A DNA stretch of 64,000 nucleotides. Origin: an uncultured virus (IMG/VR IMGVR_UViG_3300042549_004140). Its lineage: Duplodnaviria; Heunggongvirae; Uroviricota; Caudoviricetes. The translations under genes were made by a program, and so were the position numbers. The notes below the pieces were generated by a model, which saw nothing but the letters and a program-made list of their open reading frames with translations, was not told where the DNA came from and did not search any database. The stretch lies in IMG/VR virus record IMGVR_UViG_3300042549_004140. One strand, given 5' to 3'. Below, in pieces: positions 1 through 47,242 of this stretch. Position 1 is the first letter of the stretch. Every line of letters starts with the position of its first letter.

Positions 1-96
1 ATTTCTAGCATCGTTAGCGAAGATTGCTCCGCAACTACAAGCGGCTCGGTAGTCGTTGGTTGACTCATACCAAGTGTCGATAATTTCGTGGTTCAT
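1..96 (-). CDS. Hypothetical protein (partial, runs off the window)
   Basis: ATG at 96 preceded by AAGGAG, a leader hairpin and a promoter. Confidence 0.6.
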   Translation of the reverse strand, partial: MNHEIIDTWYESTNDYRAACSCGAIFANDARN

Positions 97-133
97 CTGT
101 TTCTCCTTGCGGATTGGTTGGCTCCGCTCTTCA

Positions 134-162
134 AGTCTACGGCACATCGCAAGACAAGTCAA
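134..162 (-). promoter_or_regulatory. Sigma-70/SigA-type promoter, representative of the one in each cassette
   Basis: Minus strand TTGACT (162-157), N17, TAGACT (139-134). Similar TTGAC-N17/18-TANNNT-like pairs lie upstream of nearly every cassette and at ~12130-12160, 13300-13330, 14420-14450 and 16340-16370. Confidence 0.85.
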
Positions 163-242
163 GGATGGTCGCGTCGGTTTCTCTTTTTGGATTCCTGGTT
201 TTCTTATTCTGTTTGAGCGGAGCTCAAATTTCAATTTCAACG

Positions 243-269
243 AAAAACCCCCTAACCGAAGTTAGGGGG
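243..269 (-). terminator. Intrinsic terminator, representative of those closing the cassettes
   Basis: AAAAA-CCCCCTAAC-CGAA-GTTAGGGGG gives a hairpin plus U-tract on the minus strand, just after a stop codon. Confidence 0.85.
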
Positions 270-275
270 CAGTGA

Positions 276-425
276 TTACCAATTTTCGTTGATGAACTCT
301 AAGAGTTCTCTGTATGATTTTCCATCTGAAACCATTTTTACCAACTCGGCGTTTTCAGAAAGCAAGTCCGCCGGAACGGTGGTATCTCCTGAAAGCATAG
401 CGAGAGTATGGATTATCGTTGCCAT
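276..425 (-). CDS. Hypothetical protein, 49 aa
   Basis: ORF MATIIHTL...NENW ending just before the terminator. Confidence 0.6.
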   Translation of the reverse strand: MATIIHTLAMLSGDTTVPADLLSENAELVKMVSDGKSYRELLEFINENW

Positions 426-486
426 TTGTTTCTCTTTTCTTCTTGGTTGTGGTGAGCCTTTTTACAACTTGCTCGGGTTGTGGAAC

Positions 487-687
487 TTAGAGAGCGGTCT
501 GAACTACTTCAAACTTCACTCCACGCTGACGCAACTCAACTAGAAAGTCGCTGGCGTCGTATTCGTCTAACCAGACGAAATCGTTGTGCTTGGCAAATGC
601 TCGGTAGGCAGTAACGAATTTGAACTCGTTCTTATCTACTCGGAGAAAACCTTCGCCTTGTGCTTTCGCAAAAACAAACTTGGTCAT
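487..687 (-). CDS. Hypothetical protein
   Basis: GAGGAG RBS before MTKFVF; cassette context. Confidence 0.7.
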   Translation of the reverse strand: MTKFVFAKAQGEGFLRVDKNEFKFVTAYRAFAKHNDFVWLDEYDASDFLVELRQRGVKFEVVQTAL

Positions 688-893
688 TTCTCCTCCTCTC
701 GATTTGTTAGAGGCTTCCCCTTGCGGGCTGGACACTACGAGCCTATCACGATTGGGGCAGCCAAGTCAAATACTAAGCGACCGCGGCGGATTTTCTTTTT
801 TGGATTCCTGGTTTTGTTATTCTGTTTGAGCGGAGCTCCAATTTCAATTTCCCGGCACGAAGAAAGAGCCAACCTTTCGGCTGGCTCTCTCGT

Positions 894-1250
894 CTACTCG
901 CTTTCACAATAGCCGCACAGACCTTCTTGGTGAATAAACCAATCGTGGGGACAAAAGTCGGTTTCTTGTCGGTGAGCGATTGCGTCATCAACAAAAGCAA
1001 GAGCCTCGGCGTAGGTGTATTCCACTTCATCAACGACAATCGTCTTACCTAAATCCATTGAGGAAGTGTAAATCCTAGATACTTCGCGAAGTGTGTCTAG
1101 CGAATACTCAAGATACGGATTTGGCTTTGGCTCAAATGACTTCGCGAAGTCGTCAAAGTTTTCAGCGGTGAGCGTTCCGCCATTGGCGATAAACTCACTA
1201 ACGGCAAGCAACACTTCGTCAATGCCTTCTTGTTTTTTGGGTGTGGTCAT
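894..1250 (-). CDS. Hypothetical protein
   Basis: AAGGAG RBS before MTTPKK; cassette context. Confidence 0.75.
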   Translation of the reverse strand: MTTPKKQEGIDEVLLAVSEFIANGGTLTAENFDDFAKSFEPKPNPYLEYSLDTLREVSRIYTSSMDLGKTIVVDEVEYTYAEALAFVDDAIAHRQETDFCPHDWFIHQEGLCGYCESE

Positions 1251-1439
1251 TTTTATCTCCTTACGGATTGGTTGTATCCGCATACCTAGGTTATCACGCC
1301 AGCCTGACATAAGTCAAGAACCGAGCCGCGGCGGCTTTTTCTTTGGATTCAGGGGTTTCTTATTCTGTTTGAGCGGAGCTCAAATTTCAATTTCACGGCA
1401 CGCCGAAAAGCCTAACCCTTTCGGGCTAGGCTCTCGGTG

Positions 1440-2027
1440 CTAGGCGAACAAGTCGTATTTGTGCCTGTTCTCGTCTATGCGATTGGTCAGCCAATCCTGC
1501 GGAATGGTGTAGGCTCGCTTGCTGTTGTGCCAAGAGATAGGGGCATCATTGAAAGCAACCTCCACGACGGTTTCGTGAATGAATAGTCGCTCACCATTTC
1601 TGTTGAAGTAGTAGGCAAAGAAGTAATCAGACCAATACTTACTCCAACTAGGCACTCCGCGGTAGTTGTCGCTTGGCAACACAAACCTAGCGTAGTGAAG
1701 TCGGTATCTACCTCGCTCGGCTCTCGGTCTGCGGATAAGTTCTTCCAGACCGAACGGCTGACGAATGAACAAATCGCTATCTATCCAATTCTCAACAGCA
1801 ACCCTCCACTCGTAGTCGTTATCAACAAGAGCGATTTTTAGTGGTTCGGCGGTTTTGCTGTATCCGCCGATTTGTCCGTAATCTCTCGGCTTTGGGTAGT
1901 CATACTTGACAAACTGCGAGGGCATAAGGATTTTGTTATCGGCTGGCGTTTCCAAAACTCTGTGCGTTGGTATGCTATCAACGCTGTCGTCTAGGAAGTG
2001 GGTTCGTGCTTTGTAGACATCAAACAT
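1440..2027 (-). CDS. Hypothetical protein
   Basis: 195-aa ORF with GAGGAG RBS filling one cassette. Confidence 0.8.
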   Translation of the reverse strand: MFDVYKARTHFLDDSVDSIPTHRVLETPADNKILMPSQFVKYDYPKPRDYGQIGGYSKTAEPLKIALVDNDYEWRVAVENWIDSDLFIRQPFGLEELIRRPRAERGRYRLHYARFVLPSDNYRGVPSWSKYWSDYFFAYYFNRNGERLFIHETVVEVAFNDAPISWHNSKRAYTIPQDWLTNRIDENRHKYDLFA

Positions 2028-2211
2028 AGGTTCTCCTCTGCGGTTGGTTGTATCCGCTCTCTAAGTCTTTCATAGATAGTGAGGTTAGTCAAGTAGGCTG
2101 ACCGCGGCGACTTTTTTTTCTGAGAAGGGTTCTTTTATTCTGTTTGAGCGGAGCTCAATTTTCAATTTTCAAATGCCAAACGACCTACCCTTTCGGGCAG
2201 GTCGCTCTTGG

Positions 2212-2586
2212 CTATTCCTTGTAAAGTTGTTCGAGTGCTTGTCGCTGGACTTCTGCCATTCGCATTACTAGTTCTAGCATTTGGTCATTCAAACCTTCGG
2301 TGTATCCCTCTGGGTCTGTTCCGCCTGTAAAGACGACAGGACCGAGGATACATTGGTTCTCTACGCCAACGGCATCTTCGTAAATGGCAGTTGCCATAAA
2401 GTTTTCGGTGAAGTCGTTGCGGAATAAGCCTTCCTCGTTACACCACATAGTTAGGTTCGGTGGTCGAACATCTACGGGCTGTATCAAACCATCAACGGCT
2501 TTCTGTAAAACTGCGAGTGAGTTGTCGTTGTTGAATTCAACGATTTCCGATTTTCCGTCGGTCTGGACTACTAGTGCTTTCTTCAT
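2212..2586 (-). CDS. DUF3846-like protein
   Basis: LQKAVDGLIQPV...MWCNEEG...N..ATAIY...ILGPVVFTG pattern; AGGAG RBS. Confidence 0.65.
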   Translation of the reverse strand: MKKALVVQTDGKSEIVEFNNDNSLAVLQKAVDGLIQPVDVRPPNLTMWCNEEGLFRNDFTENFMATAIYEDAVGVENQCILGPVVFTGGTDPEGYTEGLNDQMLELVMRMAEVQRQALEQLYKE

Positions 2587-2779
2587 TATTTCTCCTGTGT
2601 GGCTGGTTGTATCCACACCTCAATCCTTTCACAGATGGCTAGGTATGTCAAGAACCCCCGGGGCGCGGTTTTCTTTTTTGGATTCCGGTTTTAATTATTT
2701 TGTATGCGCGGAGCGCTAATTCAATTTCCGGCAGCGAACCAAACCAGCCACCTGCTGAAAGCAGCTGGCTGGTCTTTGG

Positions 2780-3016
2780 TTACTCGGTGAAAGTTGTTGC
2801 TTTCTCTAACGCCGAAGAAAGTTTTGCGATTAGTTCAATCGTTTCTTCTAGCGAAAAAGCGGTGTCGCTTGACGAGATAATCCCGCCTCTCTCAACGTGA
2901 GTTGATAGAGTTAGTTGGACAACCTTGCCTTCTGGTAGGTAGTCGCTGTCCTCCTGGGTGCGGTCTACGGCAATAGCGGTTACGAGGGTTCTTGCTTTTC
3001 TTAGTGTCGTGGTCAT
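2780..3016 (-). CDS. Hypothetical protein
   Basis: GAGGTG RBS; fills one cassette. Confidence 0.7.
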   Translation of the reverse strand: MTTTLRKARTLVTAIAVDRTQEDSDYLPEGKVVQLTLSTHVERGGIISSSDTAFSLEETIELIAKLSSALEKATTFTE

Positions 3017-3180
3017 CTTCTCACCTCTTTTCCGGGGAAGCCTTCCCCTAAGTCCAGTCTAGCCGGACAGGGTGCGGCGGTCAAGTGTGGCTGCCGGCGC
3101 GGTTTTCTTTTTGGATATCTTGATTTAATTATTCTGTTTGCGCGGAGCGCGAATTTCAATTTCCGGAACGGCGAATAGCC

Positions 3181-3348
3181 TCACCTTGCGGTGAGGTATT
3201 CGTCAAGTAGGACTTCTTTTACAAAAAACCCGTCCTTCTTAGGTCGGCTGGGGTGAGCCAGCCACTCATAGGCGTAGTCGGAGTCGGTAACAACTTCAAT
3301 GATTGCGAAGTTGCGACCGAGGACATAGACGGTCTTGGGCTTACTCAT
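3181..3348 (-). CDS. Hypothetical protein
   Basis: GAGGAG RBS; overlaps the upstream stop. Confidence 0.6.
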   Translation of the reverse strand: MSKPKTVYVLGRNFAIIEVVTDSDYAYEWLAHPSRPKKDGFFVKEVLLDEYLTAR

Positions 3349-3679
3349 TGTCGCTCTCCTCAATCGGTGGCGAGCAAGTCAGGCAAACCTCGGTGTCGTC
3401 ATAAGCGTCACGCACATCTTCGGGAATGAACTCGTTACAGTAGTTACAAAGGTAAAGCAAGTCCTCGGTGAAATACTCCTTGATGAAGAAGTCGGTAGCA
3501 CCGTTCGGGTAGCCCTCTTTACAATCTCGGCACAGCCAGAAGTAAGTCAGTTCGCGAGCCTTCTGTGAGTCTTTGATGCCCTCTGGAATACTTGCGTTGA
3601 TTTCCACCAGAGCGAATGGGTCGCCGTCGTGAAAGACCGAACAACTGTCGCATTGGATTTCGCTGTATCTGCTAATCAT
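3341..3679 (-). CDS. Cys-rich (CxxC x4) hypothetical protein
   Basis: AGGAG RBS; four CxxC pairs. Confidence 0.75.
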   Translation of the reverse strand: MISRYSEIQCDSCSVFHDGDPFALVEINASIPEGIKDSQKARELTYFWLCRDCKEGYPNGATDFFIKEYFTEDLLYLCNYCNEFIPEDVRDAYDDTEVCLTCSPPIEESDNE

Positions 3680-3872
3680 AGATTTCTCCTATTGTGGTTG
3701 GTTGTGTCCACACTACAATTCTTCCACAGACGGTGCGGTATGTCAAACACCGATTTTGTCGCGGTCTTTTTCTTCTGAAAATGGGTTTTGTTATTCTGTC
3801 TGCGCGGAGCGCTAATTTCAATTTCAGCGAATGGCCGAAGCCACCTAACCATTTCTGATTAGGTGGCGTTGG

Positions 3873-4265
3873 CTATACTGCGACGGGTTCTATTCCCTCG
3901 GCCTTTTCAAGCGATTTAGCGAAGTTACGCTGGCTGTCCTCAATGGTGCGGTTGCCGATACGCTTTATCCATTGGCCGAACGTTTCGTTGCTGACGTTGG
4001 TTCCGTAGCCGATTACGCTTAGTAGGAAGTCGTAGTCATAGAGCGAAGTCTTGACTTTGGTTTCCTCGTCGTAGCGGTAACGAACGGGGCCGTAAAGGGC
4101 GTTCCAGATTTTGATACGGGTGTAAATGTCGCCTAAGTTTTCCTTAGTAACCTTGTTCACTCCGATTGCCATAAGTGCGTAGCAAAAGTAAGCAACGCTT
4201 TCTTTCCACTCCTCAGTGCCTTCGCTCCAATTAGCGACGCGTTCTGCGTTCCAATCTAGGGACAT
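3873..4265 (-). CDS. Hypothetical protein
   Basis: 130-aa ORF filling one cassette. Confidence 0.75.
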   Translation of the reverse strand: MSLDWNAERVANWSEGTEEWKESVAYFCYALMAIGVNKVTKENLGDIYTRIKIWNALYGPVRYRYDEETKVKTSLYDYDFLLSVIGYGTNVSNETFGQWIKRIGNRTIEDSQRNFAKSLEKAEGIEPVAV

Positions 4266-4619
4266 AGTGTCCTGCTTTCTGCGGTTGGTTGTGTCCGCAT
4301 AATAATTCTTTCACACTTACGCGGTCTTGTCAAACACAAGAGGTCGGCGCGGGCGTTTTTTTCTTCTGAAAAGGTTTTTAGTTATTCTGCTTGCGCGGAG
4401 CGCGAATTTCAATTTCAGCGGTAGGTCACAGGGGCTACCCGAAGATAGCCCCTGCTGGCGATAGTTTTTCGTGTCTCAACTTCGGATTGCTCCTAAGCCC
4501 TCACTCCGCTTACCAACGGCTAGTATTGCGGTCTACTAGCAGACGCCAAGTCTCAGCACATTCTAGAAAACTGTCTTGGCTCGTAGTGAGCAGTTTAGCC
4601 ACTTGCTCAGGTGGGTGGT

Positions 4620-4928
4620 TTATTCAGACGGACTTACGATTTCCTCGAACGCCTTGTTGACTTTGTCGGTTTCGGCTTTCTCGGCTCGTTCGATAATGTT
4701 GTGGACTAGTTCGCCAGCCTTGTCGGCGGCTCTAATGCCATTCATCATCAAGCCTAGCATTCCGCCGTGTTCCACAATGTCTTTTGGAAGTGCGTCTGCT
4801 GGAACATCTGGGTCTACTCCGTAGTGAATGGTCATCGCCATAATTCCACAGAGAGCAACAAGGTTCTTGACTTCTTCTTGAGACAAGTCGAAGTCTGGTA
4901 ACTCATTTGGGTTTCTTGCTGAAAGCAT
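4620..4928 (-). CDS. Hypothetical protein
   Basis: AAGGAG RBS; cassette context. Confidence 0.75.
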   Translation of the reverse strand: MLSARNPNELPDFDLSQEEVKNLVALCGIMAMTIHYGVDPDVPADALPKDIVEHGGMLGLMMNGIRAADKAGELVHNIIERAEKAETDKVNKAFEEIVSPSE

Positions 4929-5132
4929 AGTTTCTCCTTCGCGGTTGGTTGTGTCCGCATAATCAGTTTAGCGGTTCTGCCTGACATCTGTCAAGAGAGG
5001 CGGCGCGTTCTTTTTTTTTTTTGGATTTCTGGTTTTGATTATTCTGTTTGCGCGGAGCGCAATTTAGAATTTCACGCACCAAAACCTCAAGCCGAGGGAT
5101 TGGGGGGAGGCTCGGCTTGAGGCGGTCTTTGG

Positions 5133-5417
5133 TTAGAGGATTAGCAAAGCCTCTTTTGCGTCTTTCAGGGTTGTGTATCCCTGAAACTCGCCAAGAGTTT
5201 CTATTCCTTGTTTGGTGGCAACTCTGACGGTGTAAAGGTTTTTAGTTCCGTCAAAGTTTTTTTCGCTTGACACAAAACGCCAGCCGTCGTCGTGCTTGGC
5301 TAGGGTGTCGAAGTAGACGATAGATTGCCAAAACTTCATTGACTCTGGGCTAAACCAAGTAGGATTTGCCTTTTGGATTTGTGTCCAAGTTTTATTGGTT
5401 GCGGAAGTGTTCATCAT
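5133..5417 (-). CDS. Hypothetical protein
   Basis: AAGGAG RBS before MMNTS; cassette context. Confidence 0.75.
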   Translation of the reverse strand: MMNTSATNKTWTQIQKANPTWFSPESMKFWQSIVYFDTLAKHDDGWRFVSSEKNFDGTKNLYTVRVATKQGIETLGEFQGYTTLKDAKEALLIL

Positions 5418-5607
5418 TTTTATCTCCTTATGGTTGGTTGTGTCCACACTACAAGGTTACCATTTACGGCAACCTCGGTCAAGTATGGTCGGGCGGACTT
5501 TTTTCTTTGGATGTTTGTTTTTCTTATTCTGTTTGAACGGAGTTCAAATTATTCAATTTCCGGCCAGCCAGCCTCACCTCTCCTTTCGGAGAGGTTCGGC
5601 TTGAATA

Positions 5608-6123
5608 CTACTCGTATTCCTTACAGTTGGCACAGATACCGTTCTCGTCTTCGTAGACTTCGGCAGGAATACCTCCGTCACATTGCGAGCAAGACTCGGC
5701 TGGCGTGAATGTCCACCTGCCTGTCCCTGTCGGTTCATCGTGAGAATAACGAACGGCATACAACTCGTTACCCTTGATAGTAAACTTGTTCTTGAAGTCA
5801 CCGTCGATTTCCATAACCTTGTGGATTTCAGACACATCAACGAAACCTGCTCCGTTTGTACGATTCCATCGAATACTCTCAGCGATAACCATAACCTTGC
5901 CATCGTCTTTCAAGCCTCGGCGTTCTAGCCAAATAGGTAGGAAGTTGTCGTAAAACTGAAAGACTTCTTCTCGATAACAGTCATAGCACCATTCAGGTCG
6001 TTCTGGATAGCCGTACTCGTCTAACTTTGCCTCGCCTGTTTCTTCGTCATAGATTTCACAGACACAGTCGCTGGTTAGTGTTGCCTTGTATTCTTGTGTT
6101 TCCTCTGTCATTTGTTCCCTCAT
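5608..6123 (-). CDS. Acidic Cys-containing hypothetical protein
   Basis: 171-aa ORF filling one cassette. Confidence 0.75.
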   Translation of the reverse strand: MREQMTEETQEYKATLTSDCVCEIYDEETGEAKLDEYGYPERPEWCYDCYREEVFQFYDNFLPIWLERRGLKDDGKVMVIAESIRWNRTNGAGFVDVSEIHKVMEIDGDFKNKFTIKGNELYAVRYSHDEPTGTGRWTFTPAESCSQCDGGIPAEVYEDENGICANCKEYE

Positions 6124-6294
6124 TCTACGGATTGTCCCGTAAGTCTAGTCTTTCACACTTCGCGACTTGAGTCAAGTCGTGGGTCGGTCGCGAGCTTTTT
6201 TCTTTGGAAAATGCTTTTCTTATTCTGTCTGGGCGGAGCCCTAATTTCAATTTTCCAGCGGAAAAACCCCTAGCCTTTCGGCTAAGGGTCTTGA

Positions 6295-6684
6295 CTACTC
6301 TCCGCGAGTTTCTCCGCATAAGTCGTGAAAACCATTCATCAACTCATCTTCGTTGTCGCTTTCGATTAGTTGCTTACAATAGTGACAATAAACTTCTTCA
6401 TCATCATCATCATTGTCATACTCCATACGCTCACGCCAAGCGTCCGCAACATCACCGGGGTCTGCCTCGGTGTTGTATGGAGTTAGATAGGTGTCGCTGT
6501 CGCAAGAGCAACAGGGTCTATCCTCACATTGGCAACTGCCTCCGTTTGACGACATTAGGTATGGAAGTTCGGCTTTTGCTCGCTCGGCAAGTTCTCGCCA
6601 AGACGAACGGTTGAATGGGTGAGAGTTACGCTCGGCGTGTCCAAGAGCCTCAATGATTTTGTTGTATTCGTATTCAGATAACAT
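6295..6684 (-). CDS. Acidic Cys-rich hypothetical protein
   Basis: AGGGAG RBS before MLSEY; CQCEDRPCCSC motif. Confidence 0.75.
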   Translation of the reverse strand: MLSEYEYNKIIEALGHAERNSHPFNRSSWRELAERAKAELPYLMSSNGGSCQCEDRPCCSCDSDTYLTPYNTEADPGDVADAWRERMEYDNDDDDEEVYCHYCKQLIESDNEDELMNGFHDLCGETRGE

Positions 6685-6875
6685 AGTGTTCTCCCTTGTG
6701 GCTGGTTGTATCCACAGGTCAAGGTTATCACGATAGCCTGACATTCGTCAAGAGCGGTTCGTCGGACTTTTTTCTTCTGAAAATAGTTTTTCTTATTCTG
6801 TCTGGGCGGAGCCCTAATTTCAATTTTTGGCCAGAAAGCCAGAAACCACACCTTTCGGTGTGGCTCTGGTTCGGT

Positions 6876-7322
6876 TTAGTAGCCTCGGTCTTTGATTTCT
6901 ACTTCTGTTCCGTAGTCAAGGTCAAGGTCGTATCCGTCATTTCGGCGGTCATACGACAGCGAGATTTCGGCTTCAATCTCATCTTCCAAGCCTTCAAGCG
7001 ACTTACCAAGCGGAGTGGTAATCGTTCCTGTAACTTCAATGATGATTTTGACAGAGTGTTCTTCGGTTAGTTCCCACTCAAAGATTTCAGCAAGGCTAGT
7101 AACAAACTCGCTGTCGCCGTCAAGCACTTCTTCCTTGACAGCCTCAACGACAAGATTTTCGGCTTGTGTGATTTGGCTTTTGAGTTCGTTGCGGTCTGCG
7201 ATTGCTCGGTCAAACTGCGAGGTCTTGTAAGCCAAGTTGCTTTCAAGAGAGGCTACCTTTGCGAGTAGGGTTTCAATAGAAACTTCCTCGGTTGGTGTTT
7301 CTGGGTTTTCGTGTTCGGACAT
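6876..7322 (-). CDS. Acidic coiled-coil hypothetical protein
   Basis: GAGGG RBS before MSEHE; cassette context. Confidence 0.75.
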   Translation of the reverse strand: MSEHENPETPTEEVSIETLLAKVASLESNLAYKTSQFDRAIADRNELKSQITQAENLVVEAVKEEVLDGDSEFVTSLAEIFEWELTEEHSVKIIIEVTGTITTPLGKSLEGLEDEIEAEISLSYDRRNDGYDLDLDYGTEVEIKDRGY

Positions 7323-7521
7323 AATGCCCTCTGCTTTCTGTGGTTGGTTGTATCCACATAATAATTCAACCACAATCCGTATTCCAAGTCAAGTAGGGGT
7401 CGGCGGACTTTTTTCTTCTGAAAATAGTTTTTAATTATTCTGTTTGTGCGGAGCACTAATTTCAATTTCCGCCGAGCAACGAAAAACCCCCAACTTTCGT
7501 TGAGGGTTGTTCGTTGAATGT

Positions 7522-7896
7522 TTATCCGTAGACTAACTTTCCAAAGAAAGCGTATTGAAGGATTGCGTCTGAACCACAAAAGTCCAAGTCCTCCCAATCT
7601 ATCTTTGCCCCGCAGTGGTGGTAGTCGTCTTTGATTGCGAGAGCGTAGCCACGAACAAGGTCATCAATGTTGAGTTCCTTCTTTACGAACTTGTCGTAAT
7701 CTTCGGGGTCCTCACACCAGAGCGTAAGTAACCCTGGTTCGTTCCAATCCGAGCCTTCGCTGTATTTCCACTTCTGCCACCAAGAGCCTTCCTCCCAGCC
7801 ACTACCGAGAACGCAAGACCAGAACTCTCTTACATCAACAGCGAACGGAATAATGATACTTCCGTAGTTCTTTTTTACTTCTAGTTTTTCACTCAT
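7522..7896 (-). CDS. Hypothetical protein
   Basis: GAGGA RBS before MSEKL. Confidence 0.7.
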   Translation of the reverse strand: MSEKLEVKKNYGSIIIPFAVDVREFWSCVLGSGWEEGSWWQKWKYSEGSDWNEPGLLTLWCEDPEDYDKFVKKELNIDDLVRGYALAIKDDYHHCGAKIDWEDLDFCGSDAILQYAFFGKLVYG

Positions 7897-8110
7897 TTTG
7901 TTCCTCATTTCCTAGATAGTGAGTGTTTGTGTTTTCGTCTGTCCAATACATAGCGGTTTGGCAGTTTGGGCAGAACGGGGTTGTGTAGTTATCCATACAG
8001 CCATACCAGCCAGAATACCAAACATCAGATTTGGCACAGGTGTCAGAGCAGTAGAGAACTTCGTCAATGGTGTCGCCATTTATGTCTTGAATAAAAACTA
8101 CATTAGCCAT
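7889..8110 (-). CDS. Small Cys-containing hypothetical protein
   Basis: ORF coupled to both neighbours. Confidence 0.65.
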   Translation of the reverse strand: MANVVFIQDINGDTIDEVLYCSDTCAKSDVWYSGWYGCMDNYTTPFCPNCQTAMYWTDENTNTHYLGNEEQNE

Positions 8111-8258
8111 TATTTATCTTCTTCATTTCCGCACGAAACAACTGCGTTGCCTCACGCTTGGTGTAAAAGAAATACTGACGAGATACTAAGTATCCGTTTT
8201 TGTCGGAGGCGTAAAGTTCCCACGCACCCTGAAAAGTTCTTCGGTAATTGATTGCCAT
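8103..8258 (-). CDS. Hypothetical protein, 51 aa
   Basis: AGGAG RBS before MAINYRR. Confidence 0.6.
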   Translation of the reverse strand: MAINYRRTFQGAWELYASDKNGYLVSRQYFFYTKREATQLFRAEMKKINNG

Positions 8259-8702
8259 TTTTTCTCCTAGTTGGTTGATAGGTAGAACCGAGTGAGAGAG
8301 TGAATGAGGGGGAGGTCTTTACTCTATCTCACTCGGTTCTAAGTCAAGTCTAAACGAAAGCCCTGACATTTGTCAATACAAGTTTGAGGTCGGCGGACTT
8401 TTTCTTTTTTGAAAAAGGTTTTAATTATTCTGTTTTGGGCGGAGCCCAATTTTCAATTTCCGCTCAAAGGCGTTAGTCGCCTACCGAGGAGAAAGCATAA
8501 CGCCTCGGTAGACGACCTCAACACACTATTTACAGAAAGGAGATTTCTATGAATAGAGCCTTTTTCTAACTTGCTCAGGTTACTTGCCAATGTCATCTCT
8601 GAATAATGTAGTTTGGGGGGAAACTACCTCAATGTTGAACTTACAAGGCGAAGTCTTGGTGGTAAGCAGTTTTACAACTTGCTTAGGTTGTGGAGGGTGC
8701 GA

Positions 8703-9023
8703 CTACGCAGTTCTGATGTAGTCGTATTCGGTTGTCCGTAGAGTGGCTTGGAAAGCCTCTGGAAACATAGTTTCCAACATCTCTCGGTCAAACGAAGTGT
8801 TCTTGCTAGATACCAACGAGAACGCTTTGGTCTTGCCAACATAGCCAACCTTTTTGCCAGCCTTGTCAAGAGCCTCGCGAAGTAGTTGCTCGGCTTGTGC
8901 CTTGCGTTCCTTTGCTGATTTTTCGTCTGCCTTTGCCTGAACAAAGTCAGCGATAGCGTCTTTCACCTTTTTTGAAGTGATAGATACTGCGTCGTCTGGC
9001 AACTGAAATTCGTTATTGCTCAT
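8703..9023 (-). CDS. Hypothetical protein
   Basis: AAGGAG RBS; cassette context. Confidence 0.75.
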   Translation of the reverse strand: MSNNEFQLPDDAVSITSKKVKDAIADFVQAKADEKSAKERKAQAEQLLREALDKAGKKVGYVGKTKAFSLVSSKNTSFDREMLETMFPEAFQATLRTTEYDYIRTA

Positions 9024-9229
9024 TTGTATTTCTCCTTGTGAGATTGTCTATTTGCCTCACATAACAATCTAACCACACAGCACCGACATTTGTCAATACC
9101 AACTTTGGAGGGTCGCGACTTTTTTCTTTTGAAAAAGGTTTTTAATTATTCTGTTTTGAGCGGAGCTCAATTATTCAATTTCCGCTGGCAAACCAAAGCC
9201 CGAACGGATTTCTCCATTCGGGCTATCGG

Positions 9230-9670
9230 TTAGGAAACTTTGACCCAACGACTAGCGGTTTGTAGCAAGTGGTCGTAGTCGCCACTTGTGCTTTCCTTGT
9301 AGTATTCGTCAAGTTCCGTCTGTGGAACGCCAGCCTTACGGAGTGCCTTTTGAACAGCACCCATAATCGCAAAGGCGTTTCCGTCTGTGCCTGTGAGTTT
9401 TACTTTTACATCTGGGTATTTGATGTTTGACATTTTTTCACTTTCGGTTAGTTTGATTTTTGTTGCTAGGGCATCAACGCCACCTTGTCGGTATGCGTCA
9501 AGTATGTCCTCGATAATCCTGTCATTTATGACTTCAAGGAAGTTTCCGTCATTGACTTCTTCTCCCATCATAAAGGACAAGTCCTCGGTGTCGTATTCCA
9601 TTACGATTGTGATTTTGGCTTTCACTTTGTTACCTTTCGTCATTCGGGTCATAGTCCGCGAAGTAATCAT
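9230..9670 (-). CDS. Hypothetical protein (start uncertain; possibly two fused modules)
   Basis: The C-terminal half (VKLTGTDGNAFAIMGAV..ALRKAG..SGDYDHLL) resembles a small conserved phage protein. Confidence 0.65.
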   Translation of the reverse strand: MITSRTMTRMTKGNKVKAKITIVMEYDTEDLSFMMGEEVNDGNFLEVINDRIIEDILDAYRQGGVDALATKIKLTESEKMSNIKYPDVKVKLTGTDGNAFAIMGAVQKALRKAGVPQTELDEYYKESTSGDYDHLLQTASRWVKVS

Positions 9671-9878
9671 CTCGGTCTTGGTCGAGGCTACTCTCTCGGT
9701 TGGTTACTCCGCAGAACTCACATTCCACAGAGTAGTTGCCCCAATCGTCAGTTGTTGCTTGACTTGCCTCGTTGGTTTTTTCGCACTCCTCGTTCTCGCA
9801 ATCGAACTCGTCATACGAAACTTCCTGTGCGTAGATACCAGACCCACGCATAGAACCCTCTGGGTAGTTGCTACTCAT
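9630..9878 (-). CDS. Acidic Zn-ribbon-like hypothetical protein
   Basis: CxxxxC...CxxC; coupled ORF. Confidence 0.65.
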   Translation of the reverse strand: MSSNYPEGSMRGSGIYAQEVSYDEFDCENEECEKTNEASQATTDDWGNYSVECEFCGVTNRESSLDQDRDDYFADYDPNDER

Positions 9879-10123
9879 TAGTCCTCCTTTGGTCTTAGAA
9901 TAATGATTGGTGTGTTCTCGTCATAGTCATACGAGTTCGTTAGTAGTTCTTCTAGCGTGTCTACCCACAAGCAACCTACTCCGTCTGGTGAGTAGAAGTA
10001 GTCGGTTTGGCGACCCATTTCATCTTGGTAGATTACATCTGTTCGCCAGCCCTCCTCCATACCACGCCATTCGTAGTCTGCGTGGGTTAGATACATAACT
10101 GATTTTTTGGTTGGTTTAGTCAT
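9878..10123 (-). CDS. Hypothetical protein
   Basis: AAAGGA RBS before MTKPT. Confidence 0.65.
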   Translation of the reverse strand: MTKPTKKSVMYLTHADYEWRGMEEGWRTDVIYQDEMGRQTDYFYSPDGVGCLWVDTLEELLTNSYDYDENTPIIILRPKED

Positions 10124-10378
10124 TGTGTTCCTTTCCATAATACAAGTCTAGCGGTTTGGGCTGACAAGTCAAGCGTGGGTCGAGGTCGGCGTTCTTTTTC
10201 TTTTGAAAAAGGTTTTAGTTATTCTGGCTGTGCGGAGCACGAATTATTCAATTTCCGGCCAGAAAGGGTGAACCCCCCTAGCAACCAATCTAGGGGGGTT
10301 CGGCAGAGGTGAAAGTAAACAAAGCCCTCTGCGGTTATCGGTAGGGGAAATGAGAATAAAAAACCTACCGATAAGTTG

Positions 10379-10777
10379 TTACACGATTTCTGGTTCTGGC
10401 TCTAACGCACTTGGCTTTTCACGAACCAAGACATTACGAGTGAATGAGGAGTTTCCCCACGCTAGGTCGTGTGAAATGCTGTCTGCCTCAATCTCGACAG
10501 AAGTTCCTGCTCGCTCTCCGTTATCCCAATCTCGGATAACGATACTTCCTGTTAGAGATACACGCTCGCCTTTGTGGATAGAACCTGCGGTGTTGATAGC
10601 CAACTGACGGAACGAAGTGATTGTATACCAATTCGTGTGTTCCTTGTATTTTCCGTCAGCGTTGCTGGTGTAGCCCTCGGTTTCCGCTACTCGGAATGAA
10701 GTTATTGGTAATCCCTCTGCGGTTACTATGTGTCGTGGTGTGGTCGCTACTAGACCTGTGATTGTGATTTTTGCCAT
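10379..10777 (-). CDS. ssb: Single-stranded DNA-binding protein
   Basis: ITITGLVATTP...ITSFRVA...TNWYTITSFRQLAIN...KGERVSLTG...SVEIEADSISHDL is an actinobacterial SSB OB-fold pattern. Confidence 0.9.
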   Translation of the reverse strand: MAKITITGLVATTPRHIVTAEGLPITSFRVAETEGYTSNADGKYKEHTNWYTITSFRQLAINTAGSIHKGERVSLTGSIVIRDWDNGERAGTSVEIEADSISHDLAWGNSSFTRNVLVREKPSALEPEPEIV

Positions 10778-10783
10778 TTTGTC

Positions 10784-11053
10784 CTACTTTCCGTATCGGC
10801 GTTGGTGCTTGGTTAGTTTGGTTTCTGAAATCATTTGGACTACTTCTTGGCGTTCGCTACGGAATTTGGTTTCCACAGCCACAGCCTCGGAGTAGCATAG
10901 TGATTTGATTTGTGTTTCTGTGATTGCTCGGAACACTCGTAGTTCTGCGGAGGTCTGCTCGTTTAGAAGTTCGAGTGCTTTTTTGAGGCTTGGTAGAACC
11001 TCAATGAGCGTGATGTTATCGGTGTTGGTGTCGTAGATTGCGTAGTTGGTCAT
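10784..11053 (-). CDS. Hypothetical protein
   Basis: ORF with AAAGG RBS in the operon. Confidence 0.65.
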   Translation of the reverse strand: MTNYAIYDTNTDNITLIEVLPSLKKALELLNEQTSAELRVFRAITETQIKSLCYSEAVAVETKFRSERQEVVQMISETKLTKHQRRYGK

Positions 11054-11074
11054 TTTTACCTTTCTACTGAAAGT

Positions 11075-11365
11075 CTACTTGTTTTGGAGTTCCAAGTCAA
11101 GAAGGAACTTTTTGTCGAATTCTGTCGCTCGCATTTTCATTCTCCAGCCCGCCAAAATAACTAAGTCGCATAGGTCGTAATCTAACGCTTTTGCTAGGCA
11201 CTCCAAGATTTCTGACGAACCTTCTTTCTGCCCTCGCTCGACTTCCGAGATGTAACCAAGAGCCACAGACGACTTCGTTGAAAGTTGGCGTAGCGTTAGC
11301 ATTTTCTCCTCGGTGCGGATTTCTTTTATGATTTCTCCGATTGCGTGGTTGAATTTCATTTTCAC
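11075..11365 (-). CDS. XRE-family HTH regulator, ClgR-like
   Basis: LTLRQLS..SSVALGYISEVERGQKEGSSEILECLAKALD matches the actinobacterial ClgR HTH pattern. Confidence 0.8.
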   Translation of the reverse strand: MKMKFNHAIGEIIKEIRTEEKMLTLRQLSTKSSVALGYISEVERGQKEGSSEILECLAKALDYDLCDLVILAGWRMKMRATEFDKKFLLDLELQNK

Positions 11366-11367
11366 TC

Positions 11368-11790
11368 CTAGTAAATAAGGTTTGGTTCTTCTGGGTTGAG
11401 GTCTGGCTTATTGCGTTCCTCTTGTTGAGCATACGCAAAAGCAACTGCCTCGTCTAGTTCAAAGATTGGCTCGGAGTAATAATCGAGGTCGGTGTCCGAG
11501 TAAACCTCGAACCAAGGATTGTTATACCAAGTTATTAGGTCTTTGTCGGCTAGTCGTTTGAGGTCGGTGTCGCTTTTGATACCTGCCTCCTCTAAGTCGG
11601 CTGGTTGCCTAATGTCGTGTTCTTTGCCCTCCTCGTCTACGAGAAGTATTCGAGTATCGCCACAGGCGACAACATAGAAGTCGCAATCGTCAGATTTCCA
11701 GACAACCTCTACATCACCGCTTGTGTAAAAAATAGCGTCTTGCTGGTCGAGGTCTGTGCCATAGGCACTAAGGTTCTCAATGAGAGCCAC
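11368..11790 (-). CDS. Acidic hypothetical protein, ends EEPNLIY
   Basis: ORF track; operon context. Confidence 0.75.
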   Translation of the reverse strand: MALIENLSAYGTDLDQQDAIFYTSGDVEVVWKSDDCDFYVVACGDTRILLVDEEGKEHDIRQPADLEEAGIKSDTDLKRLADKDLITWYNNPWFEVYSDTDLDYYSEPIFELDEAVAFAYAQQEERNKPDLNPEEPNLIY

Positions 11791-12101
11791 TACTCGACCT
11801 CCCTCGGCTCATACTCAATCGCACCGGTATCGGCATTGACAATGACAGGTGGGTTGTCGTCAGCGTAGTCAATGTCGCTGGCAACGCTAATCCCGAAACC
11901 GAGGTTGCCTGTGTAGTTGCCGAGTTCAGCGAACTTGTGGAAAATCTGTGCTGTCAAGTAAGAGGGGTCGCCAACTCGGTCTGTGTGAGTTAGCACTTCC
12001 TCAACTGCCTTGATGTTATCTTCGCCTGACCAATGCCCGTAGAGGTGGATTGGTTTTTCGAATTGTTCCGAAGTGATGTAGATACTTGCTCTGTCGCCCA
12101 T
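11790..12101 (-). CDS. Hypothetical protein
   Basis: MGDRA...LYGHWSG; own promoter and RBS. Confidence 0.75.
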   Translation of the reverse strand: MGDRASIYITSEQFEKPIHLYGHWSGEDNIKAVEEVLTHTDRVGDPSYLTAQIFHKFAELGNYTGNLGFGISVASDIDYADDNPPVIVNADTGAIEYEPREVE

Positions 12102-24739: not shown

Positions 24740-27412
24740 ATGAAAAAGTCCCCCAAAGGAAGAGGACCACTGTTTATTACAGTGGCCCTCATTTTTGCTG
24801 CACCAATCTGCATAGCAGAATCAGCGCACGCTACTTCTTTCCAGGGGTCTTCTTTTCAGCGACCTTCTGCAACTGCGCCTGTTCCAACTTCTTTGTATTA
24901 CGGACAGTCACTATGGTTGCAATCACAAGCAGGCTCAACACACCTACTACAAAACCAACCCAGAACGAATCCAAGTTCACGGTTACTAGCATCTTCACTC
25001 CCTTCTTTAGAGGATATCAACAACCTCGAGTTTACACTAAGTAACCTAAAAACTCAACTAAATACGCTAAAAAGCAAAAAAGTTAATCCCACAACCATTT
25101 CCAGCATCCAGGGTCAAATCTCCGACCTCGAAACAGCAATCCAAGATGCAAAAGATGCTAGAACCTCATACGAACGTGCTCAAGCAACCCTCAAGACTCT
25201 TCTAAGCGACCTTGAGAAGCAAAAAAGCACTAACGAGACACTTCTAACTCAAAAAACTACTGCCCAAGCAGAGCTAGAGGCAAAGAAGCTCACTCTTACA
25301 GAGATTCAAGCAATCCAGACTGCTGCACAGGCTTCCCTAGCAGAGACCCGGACTCTTCTAAGCCAAGCACAGACAGAACTTGATGCCTACAACACGTCAA
25401 TGATTGCTCAGACAGAAGTCAAGAACCAAGCACAGGAAAATCTAACTGCACGTCAAGAGGCTTTCGTCTTAGCAACAGCAGACTTGGAAACTGCAAGTCA
25501 GCAACTCGCAATCGCCACGCAAGAACTTCAGCAAGCACAGCACAACTACGACAACAACCTCATTCCAGACCCAGACTGGACAGCACCTACTTATCAAAAA
25601 GAAAACATCCGCACAGTCGAGAACACCAGAACGGTAGAAGTTCGTACTCTTGTTCCACACACAACCACCACACTTCAGGAACAAGTAATCCCAAACCTAC
25701 TCTTCAACTCAGACTTCTCACGAGGCACAGAGGGTTGGTCTGGTGTAAACCCAGGGTGGCAAGGCTCCAACCCAGCACTTATAAATGGGGAGGTTGTATT
25801 CTCTTACCAAACTCAAACAGTAAGTCAAGGTCTGTTCTCTGGTCCTTTCCAGAACGCTACCCTCACCCTATCTGCCGACTGGTTTAACAATGATTCCAAC
25901 ACGGGCAGGGTAGACAACTACTCGATGACTGTCGAAGCTAAGGACATCAATCAAAACACAGTAGGTTCAGCGACCTACACATCAACCGGAGCACACGACT
26001 GGGATAGAAAGTCTGTCTCACTCACAGCAACAGGTCCTGTTTCCTACATCACAGTCTCATTTACGGGTGTTGACTCTGGTTTTTGGTACGGAGTTTATGG
26101 ACCTCACGTTAAGAACCCAGTTCTTCAAGTTTCTCACGGGCAGATGGTGACTGAAACAACCTATGAAGAAGTCATCACTTACGAGCAGGAAACCTACTAC
26201 ACCTACGAGACCTACTACACCACCGAACTAGTTACCACCGAGGGAACTCTCAATGTAAAGATTAATGAAGGCGGTCAAGCAACTTTCAACGCACCAGCAG
26301 GTGCAACCTTTACCTCATCTAACCTACGCTACGAATCAATCAACAACCCAACTTGCGGGCGTAACATTGCACCAAACATCAACGGACTTTCTAGCATCAC
26401 AATCCAAGCACTCAACTCTGTTTGGGGTGACCCTTGTGGCGGACAATACAAGCACATCACAGGGACTATCTCGTACCTAGGCGCTCCTACTGCACCACTC
26501 ATCAAAGACCCAGCACTTCTACCAATTCTTCAACAGAAGCAAGCAGCGTTTACTGAAGCACAAACTAGCTACGACGCAAAACTTTCAACGAAGAACTCGT
26601 TGCAAGAACTTAAGACATCGGCAGAAGCAACACTTCTAACGGAGATGCAGGAGCTCGACGCTATCACAACTTCTTACGAAGCAAAACAAGCAACGGTTCA
26701 GGACATCCAGGTTCAGGAACAACAAGCAGTTTCTCAAGTTACAGAAGCTACAACGAACGTCGAAGTTGCTTCATCAAATGTTGTCGCCGCCGAACAAACC
26801 TTCCAGGCGGCGTCTACTTTGCACGAAGAATCTAACACTCAGCTCAGCGAAACAGAAGCTCAGGTTACTCAAGCTAAAACAACAGAAGCGACTTCATTAA
26901 ATGTTGCTGCACAAACATACACACAAGCATCACAAAAAGCAAGCACAACATCTAACGAAATCGAATCCATTCCGGAGGAAGGTTCACAAGAACTTCCCGC
27001 AGAGATCACAGCCGACTCCCTACTTGAAACCGACCTAACCCAAGTTGACCCAACAGAGATGACACCAGAGCAGGCTGAAGAACTAAAGGAAGCAGCCCTC
27101 GAAGTATTCCTCACAGCCGAAGAAGGCTCCGCCGAATATGAGCAAGCCCTTGACGCCCTCTATCTAGCCGCGGAGCAAGATGACATTGTGCTTGACCCAT
27201 CTTTAGCCGCGATTCCGGGTCTAGCAGCCGCTACAGAGCTTGTTAACTTCTTTGGCAACGCAGGCTCAGATATGTCTCCAAAGACTCGTGAAGAGTCCGA
27301 GAAGGTGGTTGTTACAGCGGTTGTTGCCGCTGGAGCAGCCATTCAAAGTGCAGCAGCCGCTGCCTCAACAGCTTCCGTTTCATCAAGCGGATCTAGAAAG
27401 ATAGGAAAATAA
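24740..27412 (+). CDS. Large secreted/membrane coiled-coil protein with an inserted carbohydrate-binding-like beta domain
   Basis: Signal peptide (..AESAHA), two Q/E/A-rich coiled-coil tracts around a NLLFNSDFS..W beta-rich domain, Ala-rich C-terminus. Confidence 0.75.
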   Translation: MKKSPKGRGPLFITVALIFAAPICIAESAHATSFQGSSFQRPSATAPVPTSLYYGQSLWLQSQAGSTHLLQNQPRTNPSSRLLASSLPSLEDINNLEFTLSNLKTQLNTLKSKKVNPTTISSIQGQISDLETAIQDAKDARTSYERAQATLKTLLSDLEKQKSTNETLLTQKTTAQAELEAKKLTLTEIQAIQTAAQASLAETRTLLSQAQTELDAYNTSMIAQTEVKNQAQENLTARQEAFVLATADLETASQQLAIATQELQQAQHNYDNNLIPDPDWTAPTYQKENIRTVENTRTVEVRTLVPHTTTTLQEQVIPNLLFNSDFSRGTEGWSGVNPGWQGSNPALINGEVVFSYQTQTVSQGLFSGPFQNATLTLSADWFNNDSNTGRVDNYSMTVEAKDINQNTVGSATYTSTGAHDWDRKSVSLTATGPVSYITVSFTGVDSGFWYGVYGPHVKNPVLQVSHGQMVTETTYEEVITYEQETYYTYETYYTTELVTTEGTLNVKINEGGQATFNAPAGATFTSSNLRYESINNPTCGRNIAPNINGLSSITIQALNSVWGDPCGGQYKHITGTISYLGAPTAPLIKDPALLPILQQKQAAFTEAQTSYDAKLSTKNSLQELKTSAEATLLTEMQELDAITTSYEAKQATVQDIQVQEQQAVSQVTEATTNVEVASSNVVAAEQTFQAASTLHEESNTQLSETEAQVTQAKTTEATSLNVAAQTYTQASQKASTTSNEIESIPEEGSQELPAEITADSLLETDLTQVDPTEMTPEQAEELKEAALEVFLTAEEGSAEYEQALDALYLAAEQDDIVLDPSLAAIPGLAAATELVNFFGNAGSDMSPKTREESEKVVVTAVVAAGAAIQSAAAAASTASVSSSGSRKIGK

Positions 27413-46882: not shown

Positions 46883-47242
46883 ATGAGCTGCTCAATTTCT
46901 GGTGTTTACAACATATCCTGTGATCAAGGTGCCACTTTCTCGCGAGTCATCACTTGGACCGACTCAGCACGCTCGCCATACAACATTACCGGCTATACCG
47001 CTAGAATGCACGTTAGATCCAATGTTACCGCTAATACCACCGCTATCACGCTCACAACAGAAAACAGCCGAATCACACTAGGCGGCGCAGCTGGAACCGT
47101 GACCCTAACTATTGCCGCAACAGACACAGCGAACTTAACTGCAGGTCTTTATGTATACGACCTAGAACTCGTCTCTTCGGCTAACGTTGTAACCCGTCTT
47201 ATTGAAGGTAACTTTAACGTTAAGGCCGAGGTGACGCGCTAG
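46883..47242 (+). CDS. Tail-fibre-associated Ig/BppU-like protein
   Basis: DQGATF...GYTARM.VR...YVYDLEL...RLIEG.F.V..EVTR, directly upstream of the fibre gene. Confidence 0.65.

Follow-up and report, generated by a model that had tools for sequence, protein, structure and literature searches.

The window analyzed here is a 64,000-nucleotide (nt) stretch from an uncultured lake virus of the Caudoviricetes (IMG/VR record IMGVR_UViG_3300042549_004140), and the element under study is a small hairpin that recurs between the genes of an array at its start. A repeat search revealed 16 copies of an intergenic repeat of ~70 nt in window positions 1 to 10300; the repeat families of 56 to 85 nt found in that search are these same 16 copies. 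The open reading frames (ORFs), with visible Shine-Dalgarno sequences and ATG codons, place the array genes on the minus strand, and the plus strand is therefore their template. On the plus strand, the core of the repeat consists of TTATTCTG, a short stem, GGA, the complementary stem, and then AATTTCAATTTC. When the 64-kb window was scanned for GGA loops on perfect stems of 4 bp or more, 19 matches were obtained on the plus strand and 5 on the minus strand. Sixteen of the 19 plus-strand matches are the element, all 16 with a C:G-closed loop; the other three (8750, 17740, and 26974) and all five minus-strand matches are background loops unrelated to it. A sequence-only reading of this DNA had placed the GGA loop on the template strand of the minus-strand genes, and this was borne out in 16 of 16 window copies.

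The first copy (204 to 241, plus strand; first G of the loop at 219) reads TTATTCTG, stem TTTGAGC, loop GGA, stem GCTCAAA, and then TTTCAATTTC. The others, also on the plus strand and listed with the first G of the loop in brackets, occupy positions 817 to 854 (832; stem GAGC/GCTC, loop GGA), 1360 to 1397 (1375; 7-bp stem), 2135 to 2172 (2150; 6-bp stem), 2695 to 2731 (2710; GCGC stem, with TTATTTTG in place of TTATTCTG), 3129 to 3166 (3144; GCGC stem), 3791 to 3828 (3806; GCGC stem), 4382 to 4419 (4397; GCGC stem), 5039 to 5076 (5054; TTGCGC stem), 5524 to 5563 (5539; GAAC/GTTC stem, with a compensated G:C-to-A:T change at -8/-14), 6220 to 6257 (6235; GGGC stem), 6793 to 6830 (6808; GGGC stem), 7435 to 7472 (7450; GTGC/GCAC stem), 8425 to 8463 (8441; TTGGGC stem), 9146 to 9186 (9162; TTGAGC stem), and 10219 to 10258 (10234; GTGC stem). 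This last copy is the first in the direction of transcription and lies just downstream of a gene for a protein that resembles SSB (the binding protein for single-stranded DNA) (10379 to 10777, minus strand; phrog_44), which directly precedes the array. The C of TTATTC lies exactly 9 nt from the loop in 13 of the 16 copies, as the sequence-only reading had counted; the copy at 2710 reads TTATTT, and those at 8441 and 9162 have one extra nt, giving 10. Seven further copies just past the window start, present on near-identical viral contigs, bring the genome-wide number to 23. Every one of the 23 has a 3-nt loop and a perfect stem of 4 to 7 bp on the plus (template) strand, and in half of the copies the stem is only 4 bp.

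The 23 copies, picked by their flanks, were aligned (alignment A1). In the four innermost stem pairs, the sole conserved part of the stem, pairing holds in 92 of 92 cells. One of these pairs occurs as all four Watson-Crick types (AU in 9 copies, CG in 8, GC in 4, and UA in 2), and another is GC in 21 copies and AU in 2. The covariation score of the alignment was reached by none of 500 shuffles, and pairing was lost when the partner was slid by 1 to 3 columns; the hairpin is therefore real and under selection. The heptamer GCGGAGC is present in 21 of 23 copies and ACGGAGT in the other 2. Within the viral collection, the exact motif is confined to two contigs, each near-identical to the window. 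It was not found in Pumpernickel or DSL-LC01, and megablast of window positions 1 to 12000 against the phage collection gave no match. A helix-turn-helix (HTH) regulator gene bordering the array contains a degenerate, inverted version of the core (11136 to 11164, plus strand); this version is 76% complementary to 10215 to 10243 and has no intact hairpin.

The hairpin occupies a defined place within each cassette. Read along the minus strand, a cassette begins with the stop codon of the previous gene and a strong intrinsic terminator with a 9- to 12-bp stem and a T run; the example at 247 to 270 (minus strand) has a 10-bp stem and a T run and ends ~15 nt before the core. There follow GAAATTGAAATT, the hairpin with what is now a TCC loop, (A)ACAGAATAA, an A-rich stretch ending in AAAGAAAAAAG, a G+C-rich stretch, and a promoter made up of TTGAC(T/A/C), 16 to 18 nt, and TAGACT, TAAACT, or AAGAAT, such as TTGACT-17-TAGACT at 134 to 162 (minus strand). 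The cassette ends with a second conserved hairpin, AAGGAG, and the start codon. The -35 box (TTGAC) starts 58 to 67 nt from the loop center in 21 of 23 copies, and a -10 box with A2 and T6 lies 81 to 92 nt from it in 20 of 23. The copy at -3127 is without TTGAC; a TG-extended -10 box lies 87 nt from it, and the ATG, at 99 nt, is leaderless, indicating that the same distance is kept with another kind of promoter. The second hairpin is found in every 5' untranslated region as GCGGA-nCCAACCAA-TCCGC in the minus-strand RNA, with a variable stem and a conserved loop (window positions 110 to 127, 1264 to 1281, 2040 to 2057, 4281 to 4298, 4941 to 4958, and 7340 to 7357, among others). The example at 110 to 127 (minus strand), between the -10 box and the Shine-Dalgarno sequence, reads GCGGAGCCAACCAATCCG. 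It may be a 5' stabilizer or a ribosome standby site. A 36-nt repeat resembling GTGGTGAGCCTTTTTACAACTTGCTCGGGTTGTGGA also recurs in four longer stretches between genes of the array (449 to 484, 4583 to 4618, 8551 to 8586, and 8659 to 8694, plus strand).

Of 433 TerL relatives in the viral collection, the best 80 were retrieved. Among these, the same cassette layout was found in six, designated L047, L048, L049, L062, L063, and L064. The coding-strand loops are TATC and TTC in L047; TCC, TGC, and TTC in L048, which also has three copies with a flipped loop (GAA); and TGC, TAC, TTC, and TCC in L062 to L064, often as two or three hairpins in a row within AAAATAAAA tracts. Read on the template strand, the loops of the window genome and its five hairpin-bearing relatives are GGA, GAA, GCA, GTA, or GATA, and they are C:G-closed. 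L049, whose TerL is 96% identical to that of the window phage, has no hairpin and keeps the A-rich element and the promoters. The proximal hairpin lies 48 to 68 nt from the -35 box in all hairpin-bearing relatives, with differing spacer sequences, and extra hairpins lie 74 to 97 nt from it; a spacer in L062 to L064 has one to three hairpins. Tandem GNA hairpins, two or three per spacer and ~25 nt apart, were noted at L064 850 to 920, 1520 to 1560, and 2060 to 2130 and at L062 3340 to 3390 and 4447 to 4520. Between the hairpin and the conserved AGAATAA, the window genome and L047 have a distance of the stem plus 4 nt, L048 has ~5 nt more, and L062 and L063 have 0 to 1 nt.

The composition of loop and stem identifies the kind of structure involved. 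According to PMC13037366, GNA alone among the 64 triloops in GCNNNGC gives a very stable DNA mini-hairpin, with a melting temperature of 70 to 76°C. The loops of the window genome and its relatives fall within this class: as in d(GCGNAGC) and d(GCGNNAGC), a short G+C stem with a C:G closing pair bears a GNA or GNNA loop. In RNA of the coding strand, the loops would be UNC, and a stem of 4 bp suffices for a DNA mini-hairpin and makes a poor RNA terminator. Because the stems covary, the loops obey the GNA rule, and 4-bp stems suit a DNA mini-hairpin, the element is a DNA-level structure and not an RNA one, namely, a C:G-closed GNA mini-hairpin on the template strand between A/T-rich flanks. The GNA rule and the 4-bp stems argue against a role in coding-strand RNA, against a duplex operator, and, less strongly, against a terminator on the plus strand.

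The sequence-only reading had compared the element with the promoters of the virion RNA polymerase of coliphage N4, and the likeness proved even closer than claimed. The coding strand of the P2 promoter in the N4 genome reads ...GAAGC-TCC-GCTTC TTTT GG..., so that its template carries GCGGAGC, as the earlier reading had stated; the heptamer of the window phage is identical and stands in the same register to TTATTC. The N4 enzyme is described as contacting -8G, -9C, -10G, and -11G, with a sheared -10G:-12A pair and a start eight nt beyond -8, on promoter stems of 5 to 7 bp (PMC4496689). With C209 taken as +1, the first copy has G at -8, C at -9, G at -10, G at -11, and A at -12, which fits every N4 contact. 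Across A1 in this numbering, C -9, G -10, G -11, and A -12 are present in 23 of 23 copies, and -8 is G in 21 and A in 2, the latter with a compensating change. The coding strand has a G 11 nt from the loop center in 20 of 23 copies; N4 transcripts likewise start at a purine ~11 nt downstream of the loop center. The virion polymerase of N4 is a T7-like module in a giant virion protein, and its promoters need gyrase-driven extrusion and SSB; an SSB-like gene is present in the window phage. As with N4 and N4-like phages, a template-strand hairpin with a 3-nt loop and a 4- to 7-bp stem precedes early genes. In the N4-like phage LUZ7, nine early promoters have been mapped; the stem has 4 bp or more, the 3-nt loop is conserved, and transcripts start with G 13 to 14 nt from the hairpin center (PMC9163698). 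The window phage differs in having 23 copies, versus 3 in N4 and 9 in LUZ7, and in an actinobacterial host; a host-type -35/-10 promoter lies at a fixed distance downstream of nearly every copy (21 of 23), the hairpins are dispensable in a close relative, and profile searches found neither a virion RNA polymerase nor a T7-like polymerase.

Those searches covered the whole genome (~134,980 bp), which we rebuilt from the overlapping contigs G001, G002, and G004; a contig of 135,085 bp carries an identical protein. Gene products of the window include three WhiB-like proteins, ThyX, a class I ribonucleotide reductase, an 874-aa Prim-Pol/D5-type primase-helicase (56656 to 59280, minus strand), an M23 endolysin, and an 1810-aa collagen-like fiber (47242 to 52674, plus strand) with 13 Pfam Collagen stretches and tail-fiber PHROG matches. 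By primase, the nearest named relatives are Microbacterium phages of 186 to 195 kb (50 to 53% identity) and Actinomycetia phage DSL-LC01 (66%). From these relatives and the three WhiB genes, the host is judged to be an actinobacterium. Downstream of the array, and in the same direction, lie genes for an NlpC/P60 protein, a peptidoglycan-binding protein, TerL, a small-terminase-like protein, the portal, a 690-aa Dps-like protein, two giant proteins of 3163 and 4294 aa, a 1500-aa protease-like protein, and the 679-aa major head protein, followed by tail genes. Contig G004 starts between the TerL and small-terminase-like genes (L024 ~11260 to 11320), and the contigs of several relatives end 4 to 6 kb upstream of the giant gene; these points may mark a physical end of the genome or a break in the assembly.

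No match to an RNA polymerase family in Pfam or PHROGs was obtained for the proteins of the window, the preceding 19 kb, or the other contig, in scans that covered ORFs shorter than ~100 aa, and the small ORFs of the contig part outside the window, only in part; for the window itself, this agrees with the sequence-only reading. Six-frame searches of G001, G002, and G004 with PF00940 and phrog_2206 returned nothing at E values up to 10. In the N4 positive control, PF00940 recovered RNAPII (E value of 9.6e-15) and the virion enzyme (E value of 0.0075), and phrog_2206, to which N4 gp50 belongs, gave an E value of 0. The motif D-x-DGD was absent from all frames, and no two-barrel RNA polymerase is recognizable in the reconstructed genome. 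All ORFs of at least 450 aa were accounted for except those of a 603-aa and an 890-aa protein; the latter (24740 to 27412) was rejected as a hidden polymerase because it had no phage tblastn match and only lectin-like matches. An N4- or T7-like enzyme is thus excluded as far as sequence methods reach, and the Prim-Pol/D5 protein, together with a DnaG module encoded outside the window, is the genome's only recognized means of starting RNA chains. The sequence-only reading had proposed tandem promoters in each cassette, one for a phage enzyme that reads hairpins and one for host SigA. The host half stands, with a SigA-type promoter downstream of the hairpin in 21 of 23 cassettes; an N4-type phage enzyme was not found. 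No N4-type, T7-type, or two-barrel phage RNA polymerase is recognizable in the genome, and the lack of one is the first of two signs that the reading itself had named against it. Further, L049 has the same cassette layout without hairpins, L048 has flipped loops, and the register to AGAATAA is not kept in relatives. The strict N4-polymerase idea is unlikely.

We favor, with a probability of roughly 0.35, the notion that the extrudable DNA hairpin is a cis-acting accessory part of early promoters used by the host polymerase (SigA type). This reading draws on the fixed distance between the hairpin and a host-type start, the single leaderless case included, the variable number of hairpins per spacer, their absence from L049, the flipped loops of L048, which a cruciform allows and a strand-specific reader does not, and the failure to find a dedicated polymerase. 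Transcription generates negative supercoiling behind it, as in the twin-domain model, and A/T-rich flanks help extrusion. Under negative supercoiling, from gyrase or from heavy transcription of a neighboring cassette, the short palindrome would extrude ~97 nt upstream of the start site, absorb twist, and kink the A-tract DNA. The extruded hairpin might then tune or insulate the promoter or offer a landing site for a structure-specific protein. Extrusion in vivo, and any effect on the promoter, are what we infer from this arrangement.

Several observations weigh against an accessory role of this kind. Extruding an 11-nt palindrome out of duplex DNA is costly in energy. In a nearest-neighbor model with DNA parameters, the core hairpin comes out at just -2.6 to -5.5 kcal/mol, and the two strands are not distinguished. 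At ~12160 and ~11100, outside the array, the window has SigA-type promoters with no hairpin core, which indicates that such a promoter does not require the element. The copy at -1241 has no recognizable promoter and is followed by a 260-nt G+C-rich noncoding stretch conserved in five relatives, a position more in keeping with a self-contained initiation signal. The 8-base block that follows the hairpin (CAGAATAA) is nearly invariant in A1 and resembles an initiation region. Finally, triloops are found on the template rather than the coding strand by 23 to 0 in the window genome, 16 to 0 in L062, 12 to 1 in L063, and 17 to 2 in L064, a bias that a symmetric cruciform does not predict; the corresponding figures in L048 are 8 and 7. 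The bias may partly reflect descent plus a fitness valley for flipping, since the middle base is the sole difference among the loops and a flip takes two changes via unstable intermediates.

The noncoding stretch behind the copy at -1241 was examined further. It lies at L024 17610 to 17880 on the minus strand, ~1250 to 1500 nt before window position 1, and the same G+C-rich element is present at L047 4798 to 4962, L048 5606 to 5713, L059 4765 to 4838, L060 4959 to 5032, and L062 4533 to 4605, where three tandem hairpins precede it. It is 150 to 260 nt long, contains repeats of CTCGCTCGG, and is conserved above its surroundings (up to 90% over 74 nt). The RNA fold z-score is -1.8, and no Rfam family was found for this element or the far array end, where two matches fell far below the gathering score. 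It could be a small RNA gene or an origin.

The most serious alternative, tentative and in our view rather unlikely, is that each hairpin acts on its own as an initiation signal, on template that is single stranded or extruded, and is read by an enzyme that the phage delivers; RNA chains would start ~11 nt from the loop center and run towards the gene. The reader could be the DnaG-type core of the 3163-aa protein, the Prim-Pol/D5 protein, or, in the strict form, an unrecognized N4-like polymerase; a true N4-type polymerase is at best a very slim prospect. The heptamer and register identical to those of N4 P2, the coding-strand G at 11 nt, the G starts and short stems of LUZ7, the orphan copy before a conserved noncoding element with tandem hairpins there in L062, the near-invariant 8-base block, and the template-strand loop bias all speak for such a signal. 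So does the SSB-like gene that adjoins the array. The natural mini-hairpin sites named in PMC13037366 are primase origins (G4, St-1, and alpha3), RSF1010 ssiA, and the N4 promoters, and mini-hairpins are described there as poorly bound by SSB; both points also favor this reading. The window phage resembles these primase systems in having a DnaG-type primase and an SSB-like gene in its genome, and all four bases at N, plus GATA, are used across its relatives. The primase sites number one or two per replicon and act on a plasmid origin or on a genome that is single stranded, whereas here 23 hairpins, one per promoter, are found in a double-stranded phage. At the G4 origin, moreover, primer synthesis copies the hairpin itself, and in the window element the conserved block lies on the hairpin's 5' side of the template. 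E. coli DnaG prefers CTG; the window genome has this trinucleotide at the predicted start, and L048 and L062 to L064 do not conserve it.

The DnaG core belongs to the first of two giant proteins of the head module. This protein (3163 aa; L027 6023 to 15514, plus strand, outside the window) is encoded between the portal and capsid genes and comprises a DnaQ-like exonuclease (residues 1290 to 1490), a UvrD-like helicase (1785 to 2496), and a C-terminal DnaG primase core (2819 to 3143; PDB 5w33, E value of 1e-42). The second (4294 aa; L042 1070 to 13954, plus strand, outside the window) has an exonuclease, two HExxH motifs, a PIF1 helicase, and GNAT-like and ParB-like motifs. In size, location among head genes, and domain content (exonuclease, UvrD or PIF1 helicase, HExxH peptidase-like motifs, ParB-like motif, and DnaG/Toprim), they resemble the giant multidomain polyvalent proteins that Iyer et al. 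described in 2017 for phages and conjugative elements (PMC5512222), and by sequence both qualify as polyvalent proteins in that sense. Some homologues carry an ArdC-N, MPTase-PolyVal, or ADP-ribosyltransferase domain, and ArdC-N, the polyvalent-type metallopeptidase, and ADP-ribosyltransferase mark proteins delivered with DNA in the same survey (PMC5512222). The survey also describes Toprim primases in polyvalent proteins as "never" phage encoded (PMC5512222), unlike the situation here and in many lake-phage relatives. Profiles of both giants with their homologues matched no RNA polymerase chain in PDB at E values up to 10, and Pfam RNA_pol was found in none of the 20 and 19 homologues, respectively. 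The stretches without a domain match are their least conserved parts. Residues 2045 to 3660 of the second protein had no usable match in the ESM Atlas, and an AlphaFold model of residues 1 to 460 of the first (predicted local distance difference test score of 68) had no Foldseek match in PDB at an E value of ≤0.001, which speaks neither for nor against a head-targeting fold.

The first giant, with its DnaG-type primase, is probably packaged, as judged from gene order only, and this itself limits the case for a delivered reader. DnaG-type primases make short primers, not messages. The giant proteins, including the one with the primase, are present throughout the phage family, and the hairpin arrays occur only in a subclade. 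The varying distance from hairpin to AGAATAA, the hairpinless L049, the flipped loops of L048, and the lack of an N4- or T7-type polymerase by any of the searches described (PF00940, phrog_2206, PDB profiles, and homologue domains) count against a delivered enzyme as well. We regard as doubtful its most specific version, in which the giant polyvalent protein with DnaQ-like exonuclease, UvrD-like helicase, and DnaG-type primase would open the incoming early region, the template mini-hairpins would fold and resist SSB, and the Toprim/DnaG or an unrecognized module would start RNA 11 nt from each loop.

It is also unlikely that the core acts as a weak intrinsic terminator in plus-strand RNA, in which hairpin and U-rich tract would stop antisense or divergent transcripts from entering the preceding cassette. 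A consensus scan (stem of at least 5 pairs, then a T run) called 6 of 16 cores, and stems of up to 8 bp, with TTTTATTTT next on the template strand, occur in L062 and L063. In every family, A-rich sequence precedes and follows the hairpin on the coding strand, so that a U tract would be confined to plus-strand RNA. Yet 10 of 16 cores were not called, many stems are 4 bp versus the 9 to 12 bp of the phage's real terminators, the strict G-N-A loop rule has no explanation at the RNA level, and no plus-strand promoter or gene is nearby.

The core might instead be a second SigA-type promoter (TTGAAA, 17 nt, CAGAAT, minus strand) ~95 nt upstream of the main one, the palindrome filling the spacer, perhaps as a supercoiling-sensitive switch. 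We find this improbable. A promoter scan called 11 of 16 cores as TTGAAA-17/18-CAGAAT (9/12 matches), with low specificity: there were 26 matches against 10.2 ± 3.0 in shuffles. AAGAAT does serve as the -10 box of some main promoters (window positions 4333 and 3746), the spacing in L047 is 16 to 18 nt, and both orphan cores would gain a promoter. However, the spacing is 19 nt in three window copies and 20 to 21 nt in L048, no -35-like box is present in L049 or L062 to L064, and a spacer gives no reason for covariation or a GNA loop.

We consider it highly improbable that the 17-bp palindrome is a duplex operator by which a dimeric phage regulator shuts off the early cassettes. The XRE-type HTH regulator gene just upstream of the array (window positions 11075 to 11365; phrog_8 and phrog_3) is one candidate, there is one site per cassette, and T17, G18, and C28 of A1 are invariant. 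Compensated changes in both arms (16 cells) are unexpected for a palindrome read by a protein, the right arm is less conserved than the left, and the central GNA rule, combined with wholly different stems in relatives, points to structure, not sequence. The L5 stoperators and the conserved inverted repeats of phiC31 likewise occur in many copies, in one orientation to transcription, and in short intergenic spaces. Those are sequence-conserved duplex repressor sites; here, the stem is free as long as it is paired, and the loop obeys a DNA-folding rule. A mobile element (REP/BIME-like or integron attC-like) was rejected: stem sequence varies freely from copy to copy, attC sites have a much greater length, and no HUH- or IntI-type gene turned up among the proteins scanned.

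In the account given by PMC13037366, natural GNA mini-hairpins have up to now been linked with a few sites of RNA start on single-stranded DNA. Here, 23 instances of the same structure, including the N4 P2 heptamer, are found in a phage that lacks the N4 enzyme and whose host belongs to another phylum. The phage polyvalent proteins with DnaG primase modules run contrary to the 2017 survey as it is worded (PMC5512222). If the hairpins are primase start sites, they would represent a second, independent "bring your own polymerase" strategy, in Gram-positive hosts and primase based rather than T7-like; if another delivered enzyme reads them, N4-style early expression would extend beyond the Schitoviridae. 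If they are accessory to host promoters, as we favor, small extrudable hairpins would be a general tuning device for strong phage promoters and a new role for cruciform-type DNA.

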